Below, in pieces: positions 1 through 63,954 of a stretch of DNA of 64,000 nucleotides; the stretch's first letter is position 1, and the number at the start of each line of letters is the position of its first letter. The translations under genes were made by a program, and so were the position numbers. The DNA is from Eledone cirrhosa (taxonomy: Eukaryota): NCBI GenBank assembly GCA_964016885.1, contig OZ024741.1:361832001-361896000 (forward strand), read 5' to 3'. The notes beneath the pieces are model-generated. The model made no database searches. It was given only the letters and a program-made list of their open reading frames with translations, and was not told where the DNA came from.

Positions 1-2183
1 TAAATGGGAGAAAGACAGTCTCCCCCACATCGACCCAATAGAGGGACCGGCAGTGTTAGTCGAAGGTAGTATAATAAGTAAGGCAATCAAAGATATGAAG
101 ATGGGTAAGGCGGCTGGGCCTTCGGAAATAGTTGCTGAGATGCTGAAAGCCTCTGGAACGGTGGGACACACCATGGTCACCCGGATAGTAAACCAAGTCA
201 TACAGAATGGGGTTGTTCCGAAGGACTGGCGTAGCAGCATCATCATTAACTGTTACAAGGGTAAAGGAGATGCCCTAGATAGGAGTAACTATAGAGGCAT
301 TAAATTAATCGATCAGGTCATGAAGGTCACGGAAAAAGTTATAGCGCGACTAATCAGAGAGAGAATTGATCTAGATGAAATGCAGTTCGGTTTTGTGTCA
401 GGCAAAAGTACCACAGACGCTCTTTTCATTGTACGACAACTACAGGAGAAGTACCTAGATAAAAGTAAACCCCTATACTTAGCTTTTGTTGACTTGGAGA
501 AAGCCTTCGACAGAGTCCCCCGTTCCATTATCTGGTGGGCTCTTAGAAAACTAGGTGTTGACGAATGGCTTGTGAGAGCTATACAAGCCATGTATAAAGA
601 AACAGTCAGCAAGGTTAGAATTAACAACAAATATAGTGAAGAGTTTAGTGTAAAAGTTGTTGTACATCAGGGCTCTATTCTTAGCCCCCTACTATTTATT
701 ATTGCCCTTCAGGCTATAACAGTGGAGTTCAAGACCGGCTGCCCATGGGAACTCCTATACGCAGATGATCTAACGCTCATAGCTGAATCAATGGCCGAGC
801 TAGAGAAGAAATTCCAAACATGGAAGCATGGCCTAGAATCAAAAGGGCTTAAAATTAACCTGGCTAAGACTAAAGTTCTAGTTTGTAGGAAAGAAAATAA
901 GGCGACGGTCCCTTCCGGGAAATGGCCATGCTCAGTGTGTAGGAAAGGCGTAGGTAGAAACTCCATTTTATGTCCCAAATGCAAAGTATGGGTGCATAAA
1001 AGATGTAGTGGGATCACAGGTAAGCTAACTAAGAACATAGATTTTACATGTGGCCGGTGCTCTGGTGCAATAAGTAGCAGCAAGTGCCCACAAAATACTA
1101 GCTCTTTCAATTGCGCAGATGGTTCTATAGAAATAGTGGACAGCTTCCGTTACCTGGGTGACAAAATCAGCAGTGGGGGAGGGTGCTCTGAAAGTACAGT
1201 AGCTAGAGTCAGAGCTGGATGGAAAAAGTTCAGAGAGCTTATACCACTATTAGCCACTAAAGGGTTCTCCCTAAAAATGAAAGGCAGGTTGTATGATGCC
1301 TGCATTGTGTGCAGAGGATATACGCAGACTAGAGAGGAACGAAGCTTGCATGCTCCGCTGGATGTGTAATAGTAACATACGTGAACGGCAAAGCTTAAGC
1401 GAACTAAGGAAAAAATTAGAAATAAGAGGGATCAGATGTTGTTTACTCGAGAGAAGGCTACATTGGTATGGTCACGTGATGCGCATGAAAGACGACAGCT
1501 GTATAACAAAGTGCAGAGCAATAAAGATAGACGGTAGCTACGGAGTAGGCAGACCCAGAAAAACCTGGGACGAGCTGATAAATTCCGACCTCACACACTT
1601 ACACCTCTCCAAGACAATGTCACTGGACCGAGACCTTTGGCGGTACTCAGTAATAGAGAAGACCCGCCTTACCTAAATACAAAGTAAAACCTACTACAGT
1701 CAGTAGGCATCTCTAACAAAATACACCCCCGTCCCACCACCCCCACCCCATCCACACCGCCCCTTTCAATGTAAAGTTATGTTGGTGCCACAACATCCAG
1801 GCCGAAACAAATGAGATCGTGTAGGTGTCACGACAAAAAAACACACAGTCTACGCTGTAATGAGGCCGTGTAGGCAACACGGTAAAAACCTCCCAGCCCC
1901 ACACTGTAAATGTGGTTGGTGTTAGGAAGGGCATCCAGCTGTAGAAAACCCGTCAGACAGTCCACGCTGTAATGTGGCCGTGTAGGCAACATGGTAAAAA
2001 CCTCCCAGTCCCACACTGTAAATGTGGTTGGTGTTAGGAAGGGCATCCAACTGTAGAAAACCTGCCAGACAGTCCTATGTGAGCAAGACAATCACTCTTG
2101 CCTCAAGTGGGAAAACCCCCGTCCAAACCCATGCAAGCGTGGAACACGGACGTTAAACGTTGATGATGATGATGATGATGATA
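1..2183 (+). mobile_element. RTE-clade LINE family A, starts before window; frameshifting deletion near 1303
   Basis: RT motifs FVDLEKAFD, QGSILSPLLF, YADD; PHD finger; C-terminal GRPRKTW; 3' UTR ends (GAT)n then (TA)n. Confidence 0.95.
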
Positions 2184-2630: not shown

Positions 2631-2843
2631 GACCCTATTTGGTCATAATAGTGAGAGATGGGGAGGGCGAGAGAGATGGAGGCAATGACAGTGGGAGTTT
2701 GGTTCCTCTGTATTCAAACGTGGTGTACGTGTGTGTGTAATTTTACTTCTATTCATTCGTTGTCACTATATGCAATAATAACTTGTGATTGAAATTTGTA
2801 TACTAAAACATAGACATTCATCAGTACTGACTAATAAATTTAA

Positions 2844-12275: not shown

Positions 12276-12359
12276 AGTCTTTTACAGCCATGGACATTCT
12301 ATATTACTACAACCACTCTATATTATTATGACCACTCTATATTATTAAGATTGTTCTTA

Positions 12360-13513
12360 CATCACTATGACCACTCTTACATAGAAATGACCACTGTATA
12401 TCGCTATGACTATCCTTACATAGCTATTTCCATTCTTACATTACTATGACCACCCTTACATAGCAATGACCACTGTATATTGCTATGACTATCCTTACAT
12501 AGCTATTTCCATTCTTACATCACTATGACCACTCTTACATAGAAATGACCACTGTATATCGCTATGACTATCCTTACATAGCTATTTCCATTCTTACATC
12601 ACTATGACCACCCTTACATAGCAATTACCACTGTATATCGCTATGACTATCCTTACATAGCTATTTCCATTCTTACATCACTCTGACCACCCTTACATAG
12701 AAATGACCACTGTATATCGCTATGACTATCCTTACATAGCTATTTCCATTCTTACATCACTATGACCACTCTTACATAGCAATGACCACTGTATATCGCT
12801 ATGACTATCCTTACATAGCTATTTCCATTCTTACATCACTATGACCACTCTTACATAGAAATGACCACTGTATATCGCTATGACTATCCTTACATAGCTA
12901 TTTCCATTCTTACATCACTATGACCCCTCTTACATAGCAATGACCACTGTATATCGCTATGACTATCCTTACATAGCTATTTCCATTCTTACATCACTAT
13001 GACCACTCTTACATAGAAATGACCACTGTATATCGCTATGACTATCCTTACATAGCTATTTCCATTCTTACATCACTATGACCACTCTTACATAGCAATG
13101 ACCACTGTATATCGCTATGACTATCTTTACATAGCTATTTCCATTCTTACATCACTATGACCACTCTTACATAGAAATGACCACTGTATATCGCTATGAC
13201 TATCCTTACATAGCTATTTCCATTCTTACATTACTATGACCACCCTTACATAGCAATGACCACTGTATATCGCTATGACTATCCTTACATAGCTATTTCC
13301 ATTCTTACATTACTATGACCACCCTTACATAGCAATGACCACTGTATATCGCTATGACTATCCTTACATAGCTATTTCCATTCTTACATCACTCTGACCA
13401 CCCTTACATAGCAATGACCACTGTATATCGCTATGACTATCCTTACATAGCTATTTCCATTCTTACATCACTATGACCACTCTTACATAGCAATGACCAT
13501 TGTATATCGCTAT
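12360..13513. repeat. 79-bp minisatellite, about 14.6 copies, higher-order repeat of four 19-20 bp subunits
   Basis: Unit catcactatgaccactctta|catagaaatgaccactgta|tatcgctatgactatcctta|catagctatttccattctta; period 79 (12360 to 12439). Confidence 0.97.
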
Positions 13514-14271
13514 GTTCATCACCACAGGAATATATTCCTTAACATGCAACAATGTCCACTTCCACACTTCCATGTGTAACTATCTATACAACTCCGTTGT
13601 CTACTCATCTCACCGCCCATGTAACTCTAATCTGGGGCTTTATCAAACTGATGCTCTGCCCCACACCTCACATCTCACACAAAGTTTCTCATCAAAACAA
13701 TGCCAATTTAAATGTAATTATCTAAAATGTCAAATATGTAATTAATTTGTCTCTCACATTTAGAATTAAACCTAATCACACATCACCTTCCCTCTTTCTA
13801 CTTTTATTTCATAATTTCTGTTGTATTTCTGACTAAACTACCACCATCATTGCTACTACCACAGTCACCACCACCACCACCACCATCACCATCACTTCTA
13901 CTGCCGCAGTCACTACCACCACCACCACCACTTATAATTAGATAGTGTATCTCGGACTACTTTATCCTATGTGTCCTGTTTTTTTATGGTAGATAAGGTG
14001 TCATTTGTAAGAGATTTGGCTGCTATTTCTAACATGATGTATGACTGTATAAAGACTGTTTTATTGTACAAAATATGAAGAGATTGTAGATATCTTGTCC
14101 CATCATCCTTTGCACCTCTGAATTATTTTTATTATTTTTATTTTATTTTATATTTCTCATCTTCCTCTCAACACTTTTGTGACTATATTTCTAACAAGAA
14201 TATACAGTTTTTCTCTTTAATGTTTATAACAGCAAACTGTCTGAAACCACCCCTAATTCTACAAAGTGTTT

Positions 14272-25317: not shown

Positions 25318-25665
25318 GAGGCACATGGCTTAGTGGTTAGAGCATTGGCCTTGCAATCGAAAGGTTGTGAGTTCAATTCTCAGACTGGGTGATGTGTTGT
25401 TTCCTTGAGCAAGACACTTTATTTCACATTGCTCCAGTTTACTCAGCTGTAGAAATGAGATGATAGGGACTGGGGTCCCTATCATTCCACTGCAAAGTGG
25501 TTGTGGAGGTGCCACGGCAAAAAAGCACCCAGCACTCACTGTAAATGAAGTTGGTGTTAGGAAGAGCATCCAGCTGTAGAAATCAAGCCAGAATCAGTTC
25601 CCATCCCACCCTTGCAAGCAGGGAAAAAGCAGACGTAAAATGAAATGAAAAATGATGAAATGAAA
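25318..25665 (+). mobile_element. SINE S1 head joined to RTE-derived 3' tail
   Basis: A box tggcttagtggttag, B box gagttcaattc, ccttgagcaagacactt block; then family-B 3' UTR modules and the family-C terminal hairpin. Confidence 0.75.
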
Positions 25666-29594: not shown

Positions 29595-30330
29595 TTCTTA
29601 TATAGGCACAATTTTGGGGGAGGGGAAAGTCGATTTAATTGACCCCAGTGCGTGACTGGTACTTTATTTTATCGACCCCGTAAGGATGAAAGGCAAAGTT
29701 AACTTCGGCGGGATTTGAACTCAGAATGGCAAGGGCCGTAACTCTATGCATCAAAGCATGGTGTCCGACCCTCTACCAATACTGCCAATCCAAGGGTTTC
29801 TCATCTAGGCACAAGGCCTGCAATTTTGGGTGAAGGGAAGGTCGACTAAAGTGACTCCAGTGTGTGACTGGTACTTTATTTTATCGACCCCATAAAGATG
29901 AAAGGGAAAGTTAACCTCAGCAGGATTTGAACTCAGATCATAAAAGGCTGTAACTCTATGCTGCAAAGCATAGCGTCCGACCCTCTACCGATACTGCCAA
30001 TCCACCGCTCTAATAATAATAATAATTGTTTCTACTTTAGGCACAAGGCCAGCAATTACCCAGTGCATTACTGGTACTTTATTTTATCGACCCCGTAAGG
30101 ATGAAAGGCAAAGTTAACCTTGATGGGATTTGAACTCAGAATGGCAAGGGCCGTAACTCTATACATCAAAGCATGGCGTCCGACCCTCTACCAATACTGC
30201 CAATCCACCGCCCTAATGGTTTCTAATTTTGGCACTAGACAATTAGTTTTCATGGTAGGGAAAAGTTGATTAAATCAACCCCATTATTTGACTATTATTT
30301 TATTTTGACCTTAGTGGGATTTGAACGCCA
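29595..30330 (-). mobile_element. Three to four tandem tRNA-derived SINEs (family S2)
   Basis: Minus strand reads ggcggattggcagtattggtagagggtcggac (A box) ... ctgagttcaaatcc (B box) ... ctttgcctttcatcctt..ggggtcgataaaataaagtaccagt. Other copies near 5465-5548, 36280-36385 and 39165-39240. Confidence 0.8.
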
Positions 30331-50114: not shown

Positions 50115-50214
50115 ATATATATATATATATATATATATAAAGAAAGAAAAAGGGATGAAATCGAAAATGCAACTGAAGTCTTATTTTTTTAAAAATATAT
50201 ATATTTATTTGGTT

Positions 50215-50252
50215 CCTTTACCGGTTTCGCAGTTCTTCTGCTTTTCAAAAGG
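50215..50252 (-). ncRNA. Type I hammerhead ribozyme, U3-A8 core variant
   Basis: Minus strand cctt TTGAAAA gcag-aagaa-ctgc GAAA ccgg TA aagg: perfect stems I and II, palindromic stem III ACCGGT. Confidence 0.85.
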
Positions 50253-50760
50253 TGAGTTGAGATGGAGGGTCTGTGGTTTTTCTCACATCTGGTTGGTCTC
50301 TAAATGTTACTTGTTTTATATGGAAAAACTGGCTCGAAAACCAGGTTTTTCGAGAAGTAATTTGATTGGTTTGTCAATAATTATAATAAATTTCGCGCCA
50401 GTTCGCGTTACAATAGTTCTTCAAATAAGAGAGGGGGGGTTGTCACAGGTTGTTTTTTCATATATGAGTGTTTGAATTTCTTTTTACTTGAAAAAATGAG
50501 GCTCACGAAGGCTTTTTTTTGGTTGGTTATAAATGAAATTTGGCTGTCACGTCAACAAGTTTTCATTACATTTTTGCGCCCTTATTTGGAAAACTATTCT
50601 GTAGTCTATAGTGAATGTTATGACAATGGAGAGATAGTGGTCAAGGGAAAAGGGATTGGGAGAAATGTTCTGGTTCAGTGAATATGGCCAGCTGTCAGAG
50701 TTCAGGTGTCAGAGTTCAGATTTTCTATTGAGACTGAAGATATGTGTTTATTTGTGTGCT

Positions 50761-50793
<33 letters not shown>

Positions 50794-51286
50794 ATGTGTG
50801 TATTGGAAGATGATTCTATTAGTAGAGATGGGGGAGGGAGTTGTGTGTGTGTGTATATGGGTGTTATGTGTGTGTGTGCGAGTATGTTAGATAGAGAGAA
50901 TATATATTTTTTGTGTGTGTGTATATATATATGTGTGTAGGAAAGTGGTTCTATTAGTAGAAATGGGGAGGGTGTTGTAGGTGTGGGGGTTTTTATGTGT
51001 GTGTATGGGTGTTATGTGTGTGGGAGTATGGTTAGCATGTTAAGATGAAGAGAATATATATATATATATATATATATATTGTGTGTGTGTATGTGTGTGT
51101 GTAGGAAAATGATTCCTTTAGTAGGAATATTTTTGAATGAACATATTTTCCTGACTTTTTCGTGTTTGCTGTTGTATTGCCAGTGCAAACGTATGTTTAA
51201 GGTTTATTTAGTTCGGGTTTTTATTTTCTAAAGTAGGTGTTATGTGTGTGTGTGTATGTCATATTGTGGTGTTGACATAATGTATA

Positions 51287-53557
51287 TTAAACCTTATTTA
51301 ATGTTGGTCTATATTTTTGAATAAACATATTTTCCTTATTTATTCGCATTTGTTCTGTTGTATTGTTAGCGCAAAGGTAAAATGGGAAGACTTGGAATTT
51401 GGGTGTCTTATTACTTGCGCAAATGTCTAGATGTGCACTTAGTGGTATTTGTCTCGTGGTTGGATCTCGTAATTGTTGGCGATGAACTGTCATTCTGTTT
51501 CTGAGTGTGAGTTTAGTTTGTCCTATATAATCTTCATTGCATCCTTTACATTTAATGGCATAAATTAGATTTTTTGATGAGCAAGTGAAGTGATTTTTTA
51601 CAGTAAAATTTTGTCCTGATTTAAATGTATACGTGTTGCCTTCAATGAGGTGAGTGCAGGTTCCACAATTAGAGCGACCACATTTTTTGATACTTGGTTG
51701 TGGGTTTGTGGTAGGTAATTTGGCATTGGTGAGTAATGTTTTCAGTGATTTTGGTTGTCTTTTGCTTTTGATTATTTTGTGTGTTTCAAGGGCTTTTTTC
51801 ATTCTTGGGTTTTGTTTTAGTAGTGGGATGTTATTGTGAATAGTGTTGTAAGCTTCCGCATTTCTTGGGTTGTGTGTTGAGATATATGATAGAATATTGG
51901 ACGTACCTTGAATTTGTTTCTGTTTCCGTAATTCATCAATGCCTATTGCTTTAGCCCTTTCTATTCCATTATTTATTAGTAATAGTGGGTACTCTCTCTC
52001 AAGTAGAATTTCCTTTAATTCTTGAAGTCTTTTATTTCGCGTTTCATAATTGGAGACAATTGTGCAAATTCTTCTTGCTAGGTTAAAAGGAATGTTCGTC
52101 TTCGTGTGCTTTGGATGGTTGGAGGTGAATAGCAGATATTGTTTGGAATCTGTTGGTTTGTAGTGTATGTCAGTTTCGATATTTGTGTCTTTTTTTGTGA
52201 TTAAGATGTCCAGAAATGGGAGTTGATCTTGGCTGTATTCCATTGTGAATTGGATGTGCTTATTGATGCCGTTTATTAAGTTTTTGAAATCCTTCAGTTG
52301 GTCGAGTGTGTGGGACCAAAGAATGAGGCAATCATCCAAGTAGCGTTTCCAATTCTCTGATAAATATTTGTGGAAGTTCAATCCGTATTTTGATTTGGAC
52401 TGTTCATATATCTGGACTTCTAAGTATGCCATGACTAAGTTGGCATAAGTTGGAGCGGCTTTTGTGCCCATCGCAGTCCCCGATATTTGCTTGTAAGTAT
52501 TGCCATCGAAATCAAAAAAGTTGTTCTGTAGGATGAATTTTAATCCCTCGGTGATGAAGCTTTTTTCTATTCTGTCAGGTATCTCATTGGGATATTTCTC
52601 TAGCCAGAATCCTATTGCTTCTAGTCCGTATTGGTGTGGGATCGTTGTGTAGAGATTCACTACATCGAAAGACACAATAATAGTGTCGTTGTTGACATGT
52701 TTGGGGAGGTGGTTTAAGAGGTCCAGATCGTCTCTTACAAGGCTTGGTATGTGTTTCAGTATTGGTTTCAGTAGTATGTCTATAAAGTTGCTCAATCTGT
52801 GTGTTTCACATTGTGGGCCCGCTACAATTGGTCTTAATTTAAGGTCTGTGGGGTATTGTGTGTTCACGCAGGCTGAGGTGGATTGTTTACAGGCATCGTT
52901 GATTATTTTACATTTGTGGATCTTCGGAAGTCCGTAAAGGTTGCTGGTTTTGTATTCAAAATTTGTTAAATAATCGCGTTCCTTTTTAGTTAGGTCTTCC
53001 TGGTATCGATAAATCAGTGTGTTTAATTTGGTCATTATTTTTGATTGCTGGTAGTTTTTTACTCTTTCATAGTAATTAGCATTTTGTAAGAGAGAGAACA
53101 TAGAATTTTTATATTTTTCAGCCTCCATAATGACAACAGTACTTCCCTTGTCCACTTCCTTAATTACAATGTCCGGATTGTTTTTTAGTTCATGGATAAT
53201 CTCCCATTCCCTTCGACTTGTGTTGGGTTTGGGTTTAGGTTGCGGTAGTTCATGGTATGGGAAGGTAGCTATGTGGTCACAAAATTTGTCCAGAACTCTG
53301 TTTCTACCTTTTGTTGGGTTGTAGCTGCTTTTATTCCGTACAATTGATTCGTCGTTATTCTCCTTGTCAAAGAATTCCTCTGTGAGACGTAATTTTCTAC
53401 AGAAGTGTGAGATATCGTCATTTATCTCGTTGGGGTTAGGATATTGTGGTGTTGGTGTGAATTTCAGACCTTTGGAGAGAATTTTTACTTGTTGGGCTGA
53501 GAGGTTTGTATTTGAAATGTTAATTATTTTCGGTTTTTCAAAATCGGTTTGTGCCAC
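51287..53557 (-). CDS. Penelope-like reverse transcriptase + GIY-YIG endonuclease (756 aa, uninterrupted)
   Basis: LSKGLKFTP, DKGS, YGLPKIHK, RPIV, SFDVVNLYT, GTAMG..AP.YANL, RYLDD, HYKPT, Cys-rich linker CGRSNCGTC, NLIYAIKC..C...YIGQT. Confidence 0.95.
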   Translation of the reverse strand: MAQTDFEKPKIINISNTNLSAQQVKILSKGLKFTPTPQYPNPNEINDDISHFCRKLRLTEEFFDKENNDESIVRNKSSYNPTKGRNRVLDKFCDHIATFPYHELPQPKPKPNTSRREWEIIHELKNNPDIVIKEVDKGSTVVIMEAEKYKNSMFSLLQNANYYERVKNYQQSKIMTKLNTLIYRYQEDLTKKERDYLTNFEYKTSNLYGLPKIHKCKIINDACKQSTSACVNTQYPTDLKLRPIVAGPQCETHRLSNFIDILLKPILKHIPSLVRDDLDLLNHLPKHVNNDTIIVSFDVVNLYTTIPHQYGLEAIGFWLEKYPNEIPDRIEKSFITEGLKFILQNNFFDFDGNTYKQISGTAMGTKAAPTYANLVMAYLEVQIYEQSKSKYGLNFHKYLSENWKRYLDDCLILWSHTLDQLKDFKNLINGINKHIQFTMEYSQDQLPFLDILITKKDTNIETDIHYKPTDSKQYLLFTSNHPKHTKTNIPFNLARRICTIVSNYETRNKRLQELKEILLEREYPLLLINNGIERAKAIGIDELRKQKQIQGTSNILSYISTHNPRNAEAYNTIHNNIPLLKQNPRMKKALETHKIIKSKRQPKSLKTLLTNAKLPTTNPQPSIKKCGRSNCGTCTHLIEGNTYTFKSGQNFTVKNHFTCSSKNLIYAIKCKGCNEDYIGQTKLTLRNRMTVHRQQLRDPTTRQIPLSAHLDICASNKTPKFQVFPFYLCANNTTEQMRINKENMFIQKYRPTLNKV

Positions 53558-54516
53558 CGGGTGTCGTGAGTCCTGTAGCCTTGGTCTAAAAAATGATTTT
53601 TCTGGAATGTTTTTTCATTGGTATTATTATATCTAATGGTATTTCCCCTGTTGTTGTGTGGTCTTGTATAGAAGTTTCGGACGTATTGAGGTTCGGTTTG
53701 TTGATAGTCCGGGTTGTAGATTTGGTTCCTTTGTGTGGGTTGGGATCTATGGTTTTGGAACAGGCTCTGTGTGGGCAGGGGTCTACGGTTTTGGAATAGG
53801 TTTTGTGTGGGTTGTGATCTGCGGATCAGGTCCTGCCTTGTGTTCGGGGATCTTTGGTTTTTGTTAGTAGGGTTATAGTTTTGTCTATGGTTTCTGGGAT
53901 TATCGTTATAGTTTTGCTGGGGGTATGTTGGACGTTTTGTTACTTTTTTTGTTATTTGTTGTGCATGTGGTGTGTGAGTTTTAGTTTGTTTTAAAAATGG
54001 GTTACCTGTATGTTGTTCATTTTTGAAGTCCATTTCGTAGTTGTTGAACCAGGTGGCGTTTTTTTCCCATCGCTGGAGGGATGTGAGTTCTTCATCCTCA
54101 CAGTTTTCTTTCCAAAGTTTTAGGGTTTTTTTGTAGAGTAGGCCTTCAGAGTGCTTTGAGATTTCTGTGTCCATCTGTTGGTCGAGTGACTTGAATTTTT
54201 CTTCGTTGGAGTTGGCTCTTAATCGCAACAGTTCTATTTCTGTTTTAAATTTTTCCAATGCCATCTTTTCCCTAAGTCTTTGTTGGTTTTCTGGTTCATT
54301 CGGGATGGGTTTTATTTGGAGTTTTTTGGGGAGGATGATTGGGGTAGAGTTTAGCCACTTTTCATATATGTCTGCCTTGCCATTATTTTTTAGGAGATTC
54401 CAAAGGGCGAATTTGCGGGCTGTGAGCTTTTGAGTCCATATGTTGATTAGGGTGTTTTTCACTGAGTGGACATCTCGTAGATTGGGTTCTAACGGTTGTT
54501 CAAGCTTTTGGAGCAT
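53524..54516 (-). CDS. Upstream ORF of the Penelope-like element (coiled-coil-like plus Q/N/R-rich), 5'-truncated
   Basis: 330-aa open frame overlapping the RT ORF, which lies in the -1 frame; charged helical segment QQRLREKMALEKFKTEIELLRLRANSNEEKFKSLDQQM. Confidence 0.75.
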   Translation of the reverse strand: MLQKLEQPLEPNLRDVHSVKNTLINIWTQKLTARKFALWNLLKNNGKADIYEKWLNSTPIILPKKLQIKPIPNEPENQQRLREKMALEKFKTEIELLRLRANSNEEKFKSLDQQMDTEISKHSEGLLYKKTLKLWKENCEDEELTSLQRWEKNATWFNNYEMDFKNEQHTGNPFLKQTKTHTPHAQQITKKVTKRPTYPQQNYNDNPRNHRQNYNPTNKNQRSPNTRQDLIRRSQPTQNLFQNRRPLPTQSLFQNHRSQPTQRNQIYNPDYQQTEPQYVRNFYTRPHNNRGNTIRYNNTNEKTFQKNHFLDQGYRTHDTRWHKPILKNRK

Positions 54517-54611
54517 TGTTGTTTCAATGGTTTCGATTAGCTTAGTTAATACTGGAGTAATATTCGTCTCTTGGGTATTTTCTGTTTCTTCGTATATTTA
54601 TATATATATAT

Positions 54612-59960: not shown

Positions 59961-62568
59961 AAGCCTTCCCTAGAACTAGACGAACCTGGAAAAAGAGGCC
60001 AACCTGGAGAAGAAAGATCTGGAAGCTGAAAGATCCCTCAACCAGTAACAGATTTAAAGATATTTTACTCAACGCCTACGACAGTAAAGAAGAACAGATA
60101 GAGACATTCAATGTAGAAGAGAACTGGGAGTTCCTAAAAAATAATTTACTAGAGGCAACGGATGAGGTCTGTAGCTGGAGTAAGACCTCAAGCAGGAGGA
60201 GAGTGACTTGGTGGTGGAAAAATAAGGTAGATGAAGCAGTTAAGGCCAAGAGACAGGCATGGAAAGAATGGAAGAATGGGGGGAGCAGGGTACATTACAT
60301 AGAGACCAAGAGGGAAGCTAGGCGACAAGTATACTTAGCTAGGAGGGAAGCAGAGGATAGAAAATTCAAGCATGTTTTGCAACGTGAGGACCAGAAACAG
60401 GAGGTGTTCAAGATTGCGAGGAAGTGTGTCAGAGATAGTTGTGATGTCATTGGAGAGAAGTGTATCCGGAATGATAAAGGTGAGTTTGCCCTCACAAGTG
60501 CTGAGAAGAAAGATGCATGGAAGAGTCATTATGATAGATTACTAATGAGGAGAATGCATGGGAAGAAGAGACGCTACCCCAAGTAGACCCTATAGAGGGG
60601 CCAGCAGTACAAGTCAGCAGCAACGTAGTAAGTAAGGCAATCAAAGATATGAAGATGGGGAAGGCAACCGGTCCATCGGGTATAGCTGTCGAGATGCTGA
60701 AGGCATCTGGGTCTGTAGGTTGCACTATAACCACATGTATTGTTAACCAGGTAATACTAGAAGGTGTCATACCAAAAGATTGGTGCAGTAGCATCATTGT
60801 CAACTGCTACAAAGGTAAAGGTGATGCACTAGATAGAGGAAACTATAGAGGTATAAAGTTGATGGACCAGGTCATGAAAGTAACAGAAAGAGTTATAGCA
60901 CAGTTGATTAGGGACCGGGTGAAAATAGACGAGATGCAATTTGGGTTTGTACCAGGAAGAGGCACCACTGATGCCCTCTTCCTTGTGAGGCAGTTACAGG
61001 AAAAGTACCTAACTAAAAGTAAGCCACTCTACTTGGCATTTGTCGACCTTGAGAAAGCCTTTGACAGAGTTCCACGTGCTGTAATCTGGTGGGCTCTTAG
61101 AAAACTAGGAGTAGATGAATGGCTTGTGAAAGCGGTACAAGCCATGTATAGGGGAGCAGTCAGCAAAGTTAGGATTAGCAATGAGTATAGCGAGGAATTT
61201 AGCGTACAGGTTGGGGTCCACCAGGGCTCTGTTCTTAGCCCCCTCCTGTTCATGATAGTCCTGCAGGCAATAACGGAGGAGTTTAAGACCGGATGCCCAT
61301 GGGAACTCCTGTATGCAGATGACCTCACACTTATAGCTGAATCTATGGTAGAACTAGAGAATAAATTCCAAACTTGGAAGCAGGGACTAGAAAGAAAGGG
61401 TCTCAAAGTCAACATGACAAAGACTAAGGTCCTTGTAAGTAGACGAGAAAACAGAACCCAGATCCCCCCAGGGAAATGGCCTTGCTCAGTATGTAGGAAA
61501 GGTGTAGGTAGGAACTCCATTCTCTGCCCTAAATGCAAACAATGGGTACACAAGAGATGTAGCGGGATCTCAGGAAGCTTAATTAAGAATGTAGGCTTCA
61601 CATGCAGCAGCTGTGCTGGGACAGCAAGCAGCAAACAGCCACAGGAAACAAGTACCACCAATCTCTGGGAGGGCTCTGTAGAAACAGTAGACAGCTTCTG
61701 CTACCTAGGTGACCGAATTAGCAGCGAAGGTGGGTGTTCAGAAAGTACAATAACTAGGGTAAGAACGGAATGGAAGAAATTCAGGGAGCTACTGCCACTG
61801 CTAGCTGCAAAAGGCTTTTCCCTCAAAATGAAGAGCAGACCGTATGATGCGTGTATACGAACAGCAATGTTACATGGTAGTGAGACCTGGGCACTGAAGG
61901 TGGAAGACTTATGTAGATTAGAAAGAAACGAAGCCTGCATGCTCCGATGGATGTGTAATAGTAATATACGTGAACGGCAAAGCATAAATGAATTGAGAGA
62001 GAGACTGAGCATAAGAGGAATCAAATGCTGTGTGCAGGAGAGGTGGTTGCGTTGGTATGGACATGTGATGCATATGAAGGATGACAGCTGCATAAAAAGG
62101 TGCAAAGCACTAGAAGTCAATGGAAACCGTGCAGTGGGGAGACCCAAGATGACCTGGGATGAGGTGATAAAAGCCGACCTTACCCAATTACACCTCTCAA
62201 AGGCAATGACACACGACCGTGACCTCTGGCATCACGCAGTAATACAGAGTACCCGACCTCCCATGGGTACAAGCTGAAGCATATAGACAATATGCCCCCA
62301 CACCCCCCACCGCAAGGTGGTCGTGGAGGTGCCACGGCAAAAAAGCACCCAGCCACACTGTAAAGTGGACGTGTAGGCGCCACAAAAAAGCACCCAGCAC
62401 TCACTGTAAATGAGGTTGGTGTTAGGAAGGGTACCCAGCTGTAGAAATCAAGCCAAATCAGTTCCTGTATGAGCAAGGCAGACCAGACACTGCCCACAAC
62501 AGGACAACCCATCTAACCCATGCTAGCGTGGAAGAACGGACGTAAAACGGTGATGATGATGATGATGA
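59961..62568 (+). mobile_element. RTE family B, 5'-truncated; open 542-aa RT-PHD-C-terminal ORF (60649-62277)
   Basis: ORF track, complete 3' UTR, (GAT)n tail, TA tracts on both sides. Confidence 0.96.
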
Positions 62569-62670
62569 TATATATAAATATATATATATAAATATATATA
62601 TATAAATATATATATATAAATATATATATATAAATATATATATATAAATATATATATATAAATATATATA

Positions 62671-63231
62671 TAATCAAGGTTTAGCAAATAAGAAAAAGTT
62701 TCAAAATAAATTTTAAAAAATTAACTTTACTCACTATGGTTACCTTTACCGAATCGGTTTCGAGTCTCAAAAATAAATGGACAGTCCTTACGGCATCCAT
62801 TGCAAACATAAACTCTCGTCAGAAGGATCTTTTCACTCGGAGAATATAAAATTCCTGAGTTAAAATTACGAACTGGCGCTATTCAAAATTGTTCCCGAGA
62901 TGAGAATAAATGAAGTGGAAGCAATTCCTTCAAGTGCCGTGTGTAAAGATAGAAGCAAAGGCAGGGAGGTCAGTCTACTACCACTGTAACTAGCAGCAGT
63001 CCGAACGACCAAATTTTTTTCTCGACCAAGAGGAGAATAATAATAAAGTATATATCCCTACACGCACAAAGCGCTTAGGGACACATGTATTGTCCAACCA
63101 TATGCCAATGTGGTTCAATGGCAGGTTAATAAATTAACGAGCCAGAACATATATAATCAAGGTTTAGCAAATAAGAAAAAGTTTCAAAATAAATTTTTTT
63201 AAATTAACTTTACTCACTATGGTTACCTTTA

Positions 63232-63233
<2 letters not shown>
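62671..63233 (-). mobile_element. Retrozyme-like element: 483-bp unit + 80-bp terminal direct repeat, in (TA)n
   Basis: 62671-62750 repeats at 63154-63233; no ORF; contains a complete hammerhead. Confidence 0.85.
62743..62826 (-). ncRNA. Type I hammerhead ribozyme with extended stem II
   Basis: Minus strand cctt CTGACGA gagt...(internal atgga/tccat hairpin)...actc GAAA ccgattcgg TA aagg. Confidence 0.88.
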
Positions 63234-63269
<36 letters not shown>

Positions 63270-63328: not shown

Positions 63329-63333
<5 letters not shown>

Positions 63334-63954
63334 ATTATGAAGAGAGAAGAAACATTAGATATAATTAGTAATAAGATGTATCATACCTAAACTGCTTCTA
63401 AATTCCTCGACTACGTAGTTTCGTGGCATAATCAAAAACAATACATCACAGAGATATATAATTTTTGTGAGGTCTGCCGACTTATCAAGTGTGTCCGCAT
63501 GTATCTGTGTGTTTCTCTATATATTGTTTATAACTCCCTTTGGTCGAGTAACCCTTGAAGTGTAGTGACTGCTGGAAAGCTGCCATTACTCATACTTCTT
63601 GCCTCCTTAACCACCTCTTCTACGGCCTCGATATAAATACCCCCTCCGCCTCCGTGGTATTTTTTTCAGGGTTATAAGAGGCTTAGCTCTGTTTCATGAC
63701 CGCTGTATCACGTGATTGACTCCCCCTCCGCCTTTTGGGATTCTATCTCGCATCTTACAGACGTGTTTATGAAATCCTTAATGAGGTATCCTCTTGATAA
63801 GTCGGCAGACCTCACAAAAGCTCTATATCTCTATGATGTATTGTTTTTGATTATGCCACGAAACTACGTAGTCGAGGAATTTAGAAGCAGTTTAGGTATG
63901 ATACATCTTATTACTAATTATATCTAAATGTTTCTTCTCTCTTAATAATGTACT
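63329..63954. mobile_element. Non-coding element with inverted arms of about 160 bp that contain a hammerhead
   Basis: 63329-63489 is the reverse complement of 63793-63954; starts at a TA tract; may continue past the window end. Confidence 0.82.
63789..63878 (+). ncRNA. Type I hammerhead ribozyme, U3-A8 variant with long stem II
   Basis: tcctc TTGATAA gt-c-ggca...tgcc-ac GAAA ctacgtag TC gagga: 5-bp stem I, palindromic stem III ACTACGTAGT, GUC cleavage triplet. Confidence 0.87.

Follow-up and report, generated by a model that had tools for sequence, protein, structure and literature searches.

A hammerhead retrozyme family of 483-nt units in Eledone cirrhosa, with insertion ends that suggest Penelope-type mobilization into (TA)n tracts

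The insertion described here lies near the end of a 64,000-nt stretch of Eledone cirrhosa DNA (assembly GCA_964016885.1, contig OZ024741.1, positions 361,832,001 to 361,896,000; hereafter the window) and is very probably a 5′-truncated, single-arm copy of a metazoan non-LTR retrozyme, placed into a (TA)n tract most likely by the reverse transcriptase (RT) and GIY-YIG endonuclease of a Penelope-like element (PLE). Six features are read directly from the sequence: the unit, its hammerhead motif, the TA targets, 3′ ends fixed at two sites, 5′ ends without a fixed position, and head-to-head arms with mixed ends. We regard the family as likely a new one of a known kind, namely a metazoan non-LTR retrozyme that is likely Penelope-mobilized via internal priming, and likely twin priming; our literature searches on hammerheads, Penelope elements and retrozymes found no published description of this 483-nt family.

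On the minus strand the focal insertion, a single 5′-truncated arm, reads from a (TA)n tract through GGTA, one 483-nt unit and ~81 nt of the next unit into a TA-rich microsatellite (Table 1). The unit has a GC content of 0.371 and no coding frame, the longest stop-free frame that overlaps it being 71 codons, and as it contains no RT or GIY-YIG open reading frame it is not an autonomous Penelope-like element. The 483-bp unit and 80-bp direct repeat reported in a first-pass annotation are both present, the repeat (62666–62750 and 63149–63233, spacing 483, 3 mismatches) reaching 85 nt if the TA overlap is counted; this ‘terminal repeat’ is a mere overlap of a 1.17-unit cDNA, and its length varies among copies. 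Also borne out were the minus-strand start at GGTA/AAGG (at 63233, 4 nt before the predicted cleavage site), an intact hammerhead one unit downstream, here a complete type I motif, and a 3′ end at an internal TA tract matching the target. This last tract is GATTATATAT, and the 3′ boundary is ambiguous over 62666–62672 because it merges with the TA-rich microsatellite. No target-site duplication is resolvable within (TA)n at the focal insertion, and the window holds no further copies of the unit.

Several other repeats share the window. A ~620-bp element at 63330–63950 adjoins the same (TA)n tract and has 135-nt inverted arms that are 97% complementary (locus L221, 2356–2490 and 2794–2928), as in a MITE or other two-armed insertion. 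The window also contains a 79-bp minisatellite of 14.7 copies (12354–13514) and a 203/212-bp tandem of a SINE-like repeat (29609–30217), and a tRNA-like match lies at 25324–25387.

Table 1. Coordinates, within the window, of the focal retrozyme insertion, its hammerhead and flanks, and the helper-family copy.
Feature	Position	Strand	Remark
Whole insertion	62666..63233	-	4 nt + one 483-nt unit + ~81 nt (1.17 units)
Non-coding unit, 483 nt	62747..63229	-	Cleavage site to cleavage site
5′ end, GGTA	63230..63233	-	Last 4 nt of preceding unit; upstream hammerhead incomplete
3′ end at site A	62666..62675	-	Unit +72..+81, GATTATATAT; inferred RT start, TA microhomology
Site A inside full unit	63149..63158	-	Predicted unpaired, just 3′ of hairpin 1
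Site B	63036..63049	-	Unit +181..+194; predicted unpaired, just 3′ of hairpin 2
Predicted hairpin 1	63159..63229	-	Unit 1–71
Complete type I hammerhead	62743..62826	-	Motif scan; one unit downstream of the insertion's 5′ start
Stem I, CCUU	62826–62823	-	4 bp (CCUU/AAGG)
Core, CUGACGA	62822–62816	-	
Stem II	62815–62762	-	6 bp, extended by internal loop and further hairpin
GAAA	62761–62758	-	
Stem III	to 62748	-	Near-palindromic, ACCG-AUU-CGGU (AUU loop)
A17	62747	-	Predicted cleavage after GUA, at 62747/62746
(TA)n target, 5′ flank	63234..63267	.	
Degenerate TA microsatellite, 3′ flank	62568..62665	.	14-nt period
Helper-family copy	50143..54593	-	98% identical, 5′-truncated, frameshifted, ends in (TA)n; outside retrozyme insertion

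The focal hammerhead is the sole canonical-core match of our motif scan in the 64-kb window, and since the insertion holds this one complete hammerhead, without two consecutive complete ones, it is probably unable to release unit-length RNA alone. Rfam, in gathering and E-value modes, returned no hammerhead match, probably because stem II carries a 42-nt structured insert. Across the family the motif retains its pairing: in a hammerhead alignment of 55 distinct rows, 95.1% of cells are paired. Both partners of a pair have changed in stem II (G-C to A-U in 15 rows) and in its extension (U-A to C-G in 25 rows), and the covariation score was reached by 0/500 shuffles, these changes being few independent events inherited by many copies. 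The minimum free energy fold of the isolated 121-nt motif lacks the hammerhead (z 0.39); the whole-unit fold has z −1.98. With the focal copy's fold as the model of the unit, pairing on the hammerhead strand (G-U allowed) survives in 30 of 40 common variant pair states, against 25% of rare ones, and in 22 of 40 under the antisense rule, the pair states not being independent of one another. An AAGGU/ACCUU pairing in hairpin 1 is predicted by this folding, and it would sequester hammerhead stem I in unit-length RNA. Self-cleavage of the retrozyme is a prediction from its motif; among predicted Xenopus dimers, only one of nine is reported to cleave in vitro (Li, Clavereau and Pollet, 2026, bioRxiv 10.64898/2026.07.22.740005).

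The host genome (~3.0 Gb) contains 975 exact matches to a 23-nt cleavage-site motif and 1,511 to a 22-nt tail motif, with 0 matches to either reversed control, so the unit (975 against 0) is not a chance sequence; the family numbers at least about 1,000 copies, and loci often hold more than one marker match. From the first 100 matches per motif on contig C1 we obtained 115 distinct loci, after dropping 6 overlapping cleavage-motif loci and 19 tail-motif duplicates, and a best-hit sample of 30 loci came to 26 once 4 duplicates were removed. Copies are ~74–99% similar to the window unit and group into subfamilies, and pieces of the unit occur in contigs of four sequencing runs from three organisms, where a 483-nt step back proved to be simply the tandem junction. 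Rare changes on the ribozyme strand (A>G 115, T>C 192) and the absence of any hyper-edited locus gave no sign of RNA-editing scars. These family data support the earlier description of a hammerhead-bearing retroposed unit of ~483 nt. A further retrozyme-like family was seen at L146 (5773–6682, plus strand), where a hammerhead repeat with a 5-bp stem I and long stem II is arranged in tandem, with a 459-bp period, in (TA)n.

The 3′ ends of the family are fixed at two internal U/A-rich tracts, +81 (site A) and +181..194 (site B, ~+190), both predicted to be unpaired and each just 3′ of a hairpin; site B is the family's second end site and is not used by the focal copy. Among 75 single-arm loci, 67 end at site A, 4 at site B and 4 elsewhere. 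The other 40 of the 115 loci carry a second arm, head-to-head with the first, and in 32 of these 40 both outer ends lie at the two sites, invariably one of each (32/32; chance 0.5^32 = 2e-10), a rule that already held for 26/26 in the first count. In the remaining 8, one or both ends lie elsewhere, which for three of these loci is probably an artefact of a reference ending at +154. Arms that end at site A or B run directly into TA repeat in 126 of 142 cases, which supports the RT priming by TA microhomology proposed in the first-pass annotation; that reading contains neither the second 3′ site nor the inverted arms, and makes no link to Penelope elements. The stretch from +81 to ~+190, present on one end only, is a Penelope-type ‘tail’, and the 5′ truncation, partial tandems and inverted 5′ arm of the Penelope-type footprint are all present in the family. 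An inverted truncated copy and a tail at one end are given as PLE hallmarks (PMC3846280; PMC8557442), and PLE insertions are described as mostly 5′-truncated and prone to form partial tandems (PMC8557442). For an anole PLE in vitro, two internal RT starts and extension of both strands are reported, with hammerhead cleavage dispensable, and a predicted dimer of the PLE protein is given in the same report (PMC11167929).

Comparison of segments within and between loci bears on the template. Divergence within a locus is 3.5% for segments of the same arm (115 pairs) and 4.1% for opposite arms (72 pairs), against a median of 8.4% between loci, and only 29 of the 115 same-arm pairs and 12 of the 72 opposite-arm pairs are as close as the nearest other locus. 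Among 137 loci, roughly a tenth of the family (4 loci with two separate insertions left out), 11 locus-private alleles are common to tandem units (8 loci) and 2 to opposite arms (2 loci), the latter a thin count; between-locus doubletons occur at rates ~35 (tandem) and ~12 (opposite arms) times lower. Indels within 3 nt of the cleavage site are absent from all 75 junctions at loci that were not selected on the junction, which shows an uninterrupted template at that point. Such data fit a single template for each insertion and a unit that is copied repeatedly, and the fit is not a unique one. We lean towards a circular template, a linear one being somewhat less probable; long rolling-circle runs are not seen because the arms are short (the longest of 155 is 1,148 nt).

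A linear template would allow a variant of the same general explanation, in which Penelope-driven insertion starts from an uncleaved linear multimer of tandem master loci and the hammerhead acts as a protein-binding or positioning element. The dispensability of hammerhead cleavage for insertion in vitro (PMC11167929) speaks for it, as do the short arms and the ~17–19 of 115 loci that are long enough for two hammerheads (a length-based count, two borderline); clean junctions fit linear and circular models alike, and with ~10% of the family sampled the ‘private’ alleles may come from masters outside the sample. However, a linear multimer offers several copies of each start site and would not by itself force the mixed ends (32/32), without long masters the family would lose length to 5′ truncation at every round, and in the loci sampled arrays do not exceed three units. 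We regard this variant as possible and rather unlikely.

As to the enzyme, the genome contains 10,596 GIY-YIG candidates, and among the 150 listed loci we examined 50. A young and abundant helper candidate (L145) has a 938-codon frame with RT and GIY-YIG, and the ribozyme motif of its family has 10,567 exact genomic matches; the copy in the window is broken into two overlapping frames of 357 and 775 codons. The helper pLTR carries a U3-A8 hammerhead variant (near 50215–50252 of the window copy) whose stem I is the same as that of the retrozyme. Copies of the helper show the layout of the retrozyme: they end at +82 or +150 from their own hammerhead, in (TA)n targets, and its two-armed loci with both ends exactly at these positions are mixed in 7/7; in two further two-armed loci one end lies at +77 or +48, and another locus is truncated at its edge. 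The helper endonuclease is preceded by a CxxxxCxxC motif, as is described for the Neptune and Nematis clades (PMC8557442), a likeness of motif. Similarity of the retrozyme to the best candidate's tail lies mostly in the ribozyme core and stem I (score 43; 4/500 shuffles as high), and because it is weak beyond the core, and several other hammerhead-bearing PLE families are present, the helper is a candidate only.

These other Penelope-like families (L116, L126, L137, L151, L157, L161, L162) have variants of the minimal hammerhead in which the core reads UUGANAA and stem III is palindromic; in one of them GCAA replaces GAAA. Helper-family pLTR pieces lie near several other retrozyme ends, which we take for nested insertions into a shared TA tract; at L107 a 5′-truncated piece of the helper pLTR abuts the site-A end of a retrozyme with no TA run between. 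The 11-mer CGAACTGGCGC occurs both in the retrozyme unit (window 62860–62870, plus strand) and in the helper pLTR (L145, ~2782–2792, minus strand), in opposite orientations relative to the ribozyme. It resembles an E2F-type site and may be a promoter element.

The search for a parent PLE in the 50 GIY-YIG loci gave no autonomous element with the unit as its pLTR, a point against the favoured explanation; matches to the unit were all short and either AT-rich or due to chance, and a 22-nt match in L150 and L154 is part of another small repeat. It is improbable that the copies are truncated pLTR stumps of an unsampled autonomous Penelope-like element, a reading that draws on the mostly 5′-truncated, partially tandem habit of PLE insertions (PMC8557442) and on the examined GIY-YIG loci being only 50. 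Against it, none of the arms in the 115 loci sampled by position or the 26 best-hit loci continues upstream into shared non-unit sequence; what lies upstream of a unit is the same unit again, up to ~2.4 units per arm.

The first-pass annotation had also tied the start of the element to ribozyme cleavage by mechanism, and this part mostly failed when copy ends were mapped relative to the cleavage site across the family: 5′ ends are mostly unrelated to the site and spread over the whole unit (155 arms of 115 loci, in eight bins round the unit: 27, 20, 12, 14, 19, 20, 17, 26). As 78 of the loci were selected on an intact junction, the count was repeated on 76 loci selected on the tail motif. There, 90 arms reach the first cleavage site, of which 86 run at least 6 nt past it, and none of 108 ends at +1..+3, while 8 of the 108 (~7%) end within 5 nt of the cleavage site (3.2 expected, 2.5-fold, P=0.016), six of them at −4..−1 (1.3 expected, P=0.002), a window that was suggested by the focal copy; enrichment is similar in other windows of the unit. 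Two sources could explain this small excess: a minority of templates may have been cut and used with short microhomology, or synthesis may pause at the stem III base. The 5′ ends also gather in another small cluster at −17..−14, the 3′ base of stem II (L080, L096, L104, L109, L021, L030), which hints at RT pausing at hairpin bases. The focal copy itself keeps 4 nt upstream of the scissile bond and so does not match a cleaved 5′ end, and given the scattered ends and small excess its −4 start is not a family rule; we consider it mostly coincidence.

The same counts bear on the reading that templates are ribozyme-cleaved linear units, with 5′ ends marking the cleavage site and extra units gained through jumps between cut RNAs. 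The 8 arms near the site, 6 of them at −4..−1, and a locus where both arms end at the cleavage site (L214) would agree with it; as the main route it is largely refuted and quite improbable, and it survives as a minor route for ~5% of arms. Least credible is a satellite or minisatellite spread by DNA-level duplication with the hammerhead as a passenger: local duplication would also explain private alleles common to tandem units, and local amplification is discussed by Li et al. (bioRxiv 10.64898/2026.07.22.740005), but the dispersal of copies, their inverted arms and TA junctions, and ends that are fixed at 3′ and random at 5′ are marks of retroposition, and the structure-keeping variation fits selection on an RNA.

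We return to Penelope-mediated copying of a retrozyme RNA, for which a plausible course can be outlined. Loci with two complete hammerheads would be transcribed and self-cleave into unit-length RNA, which would likely be ligated into a circle. A Penelope protein would then nick a (TA)n tract, and cDNA synthesis would be primed internally, by TA pairing with an unpaired UA tract of the RNA (+81 or ~+190); the RT would cross the cleavage junction, the template being continuous there, and would dissociate at a nearly random position. Were both target strands primed, two cDNAs from different sites would be joined 5′ to 5′. The focal copy would have started at +81 and stopped 4 nt after its second passage of the cleavage position, by chance or at a weak pause. 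More speculatively, and tentatively at best, a dimeric Penelope protein may copy one circular 483-nt RNA from both strands of the cut (TA)n, its subunits forced onto different start sites of the same molecule; the hammerhead fold would set the first start, at +81 nt from the cleavage site in the retrozyme and +82 nt in the U3-A8 helper, although the sequences in between have almost nothing in common.

The family shares with metazoan non-LTR retrozymes, as these are described, a non-coding low-GC unit with one type I hammerhead each, short tandems, and the co-existence of PLEs, by which mobilization has been proposed; circles have been shown for coral, mussel and axolotl retrozymes (Cervera and de la Pena, 2020, PMC7229834), and retrozymes have been linked to pLTRs by phylogeny (Li et al., 2026, bioRxiv 10.64898/2026.07.22.740005). 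The unit of 483 nt exceeds the 170–400 nt of the former report and falls within the 51–972 bp of the latter; in contrast to other metazoan retrozymes, stem II has a long structured insert and stem I is predicted to be blocked, and the focal copy does not have the two consecutive complete hammerheads that define an ‘active’ copy in Li et al. (2026). Two-site 3′ ends, inverted arms and (TA)n targeting, present here, were not found in those parts of the metazoan retrozyme descriptions that we draw on.

With PLE insertions the family has in common 5′ truncation, head-to-head arms, two RT starts with a one-end tail (PMC3846280; PMC8557442; PMC11167929), AT-rich targets, and a hammerhead just upstream of the 3′ end. 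Unlike PLE insertions as reported, the retrozyme lacks an open reading frame, its tail is ~110 nt where that of PLEs is 30–40 bp, its start sites have TA microhomology with the target, and its tandems are purely unit-after-unit. PLE minimal hammerheads, for which the U3-A8 core variant has been described, similarly combine a short stem I and long stem II, and their palindromic stem III lends itself to folding as a dimer (Cervera and de la Pena, 2014, PMC4209133); it is the helper candidate that carries U3-A8, whereas the retrozyme keeps a canonical C3-G8 core and 4-bp stem III. Plant LTR retrozymes, too, are non-autonomous hammerhead retroelements, and like the focal copy are flanked, here only apparently, by direct repeats, but they are described as having type III hammerheads in true LTRs, PBS and PPT, and 4-bp target-site duplications (bioRxiv 10.64898/2026.07.22.740005), where our family has a type I hammerhead and a repeat whose length varies by copy with 5′ truncation.

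In the accounts cited here, Penelope borrowing and circle copying by retrozymes have so far been backed by co-occurrence and pLTR similarity, not by insertion anatomy. The present family displays the Penelope tail signature in strict form beside a young helper candidate with a near-intact frame, and the two offer a concrete RNA–enzyme pair for work in vitro. If the dimer hypothesis were true, the genome would hold a record of the geometry of Penelope twin priming and of rolling-circle reverse transcription.
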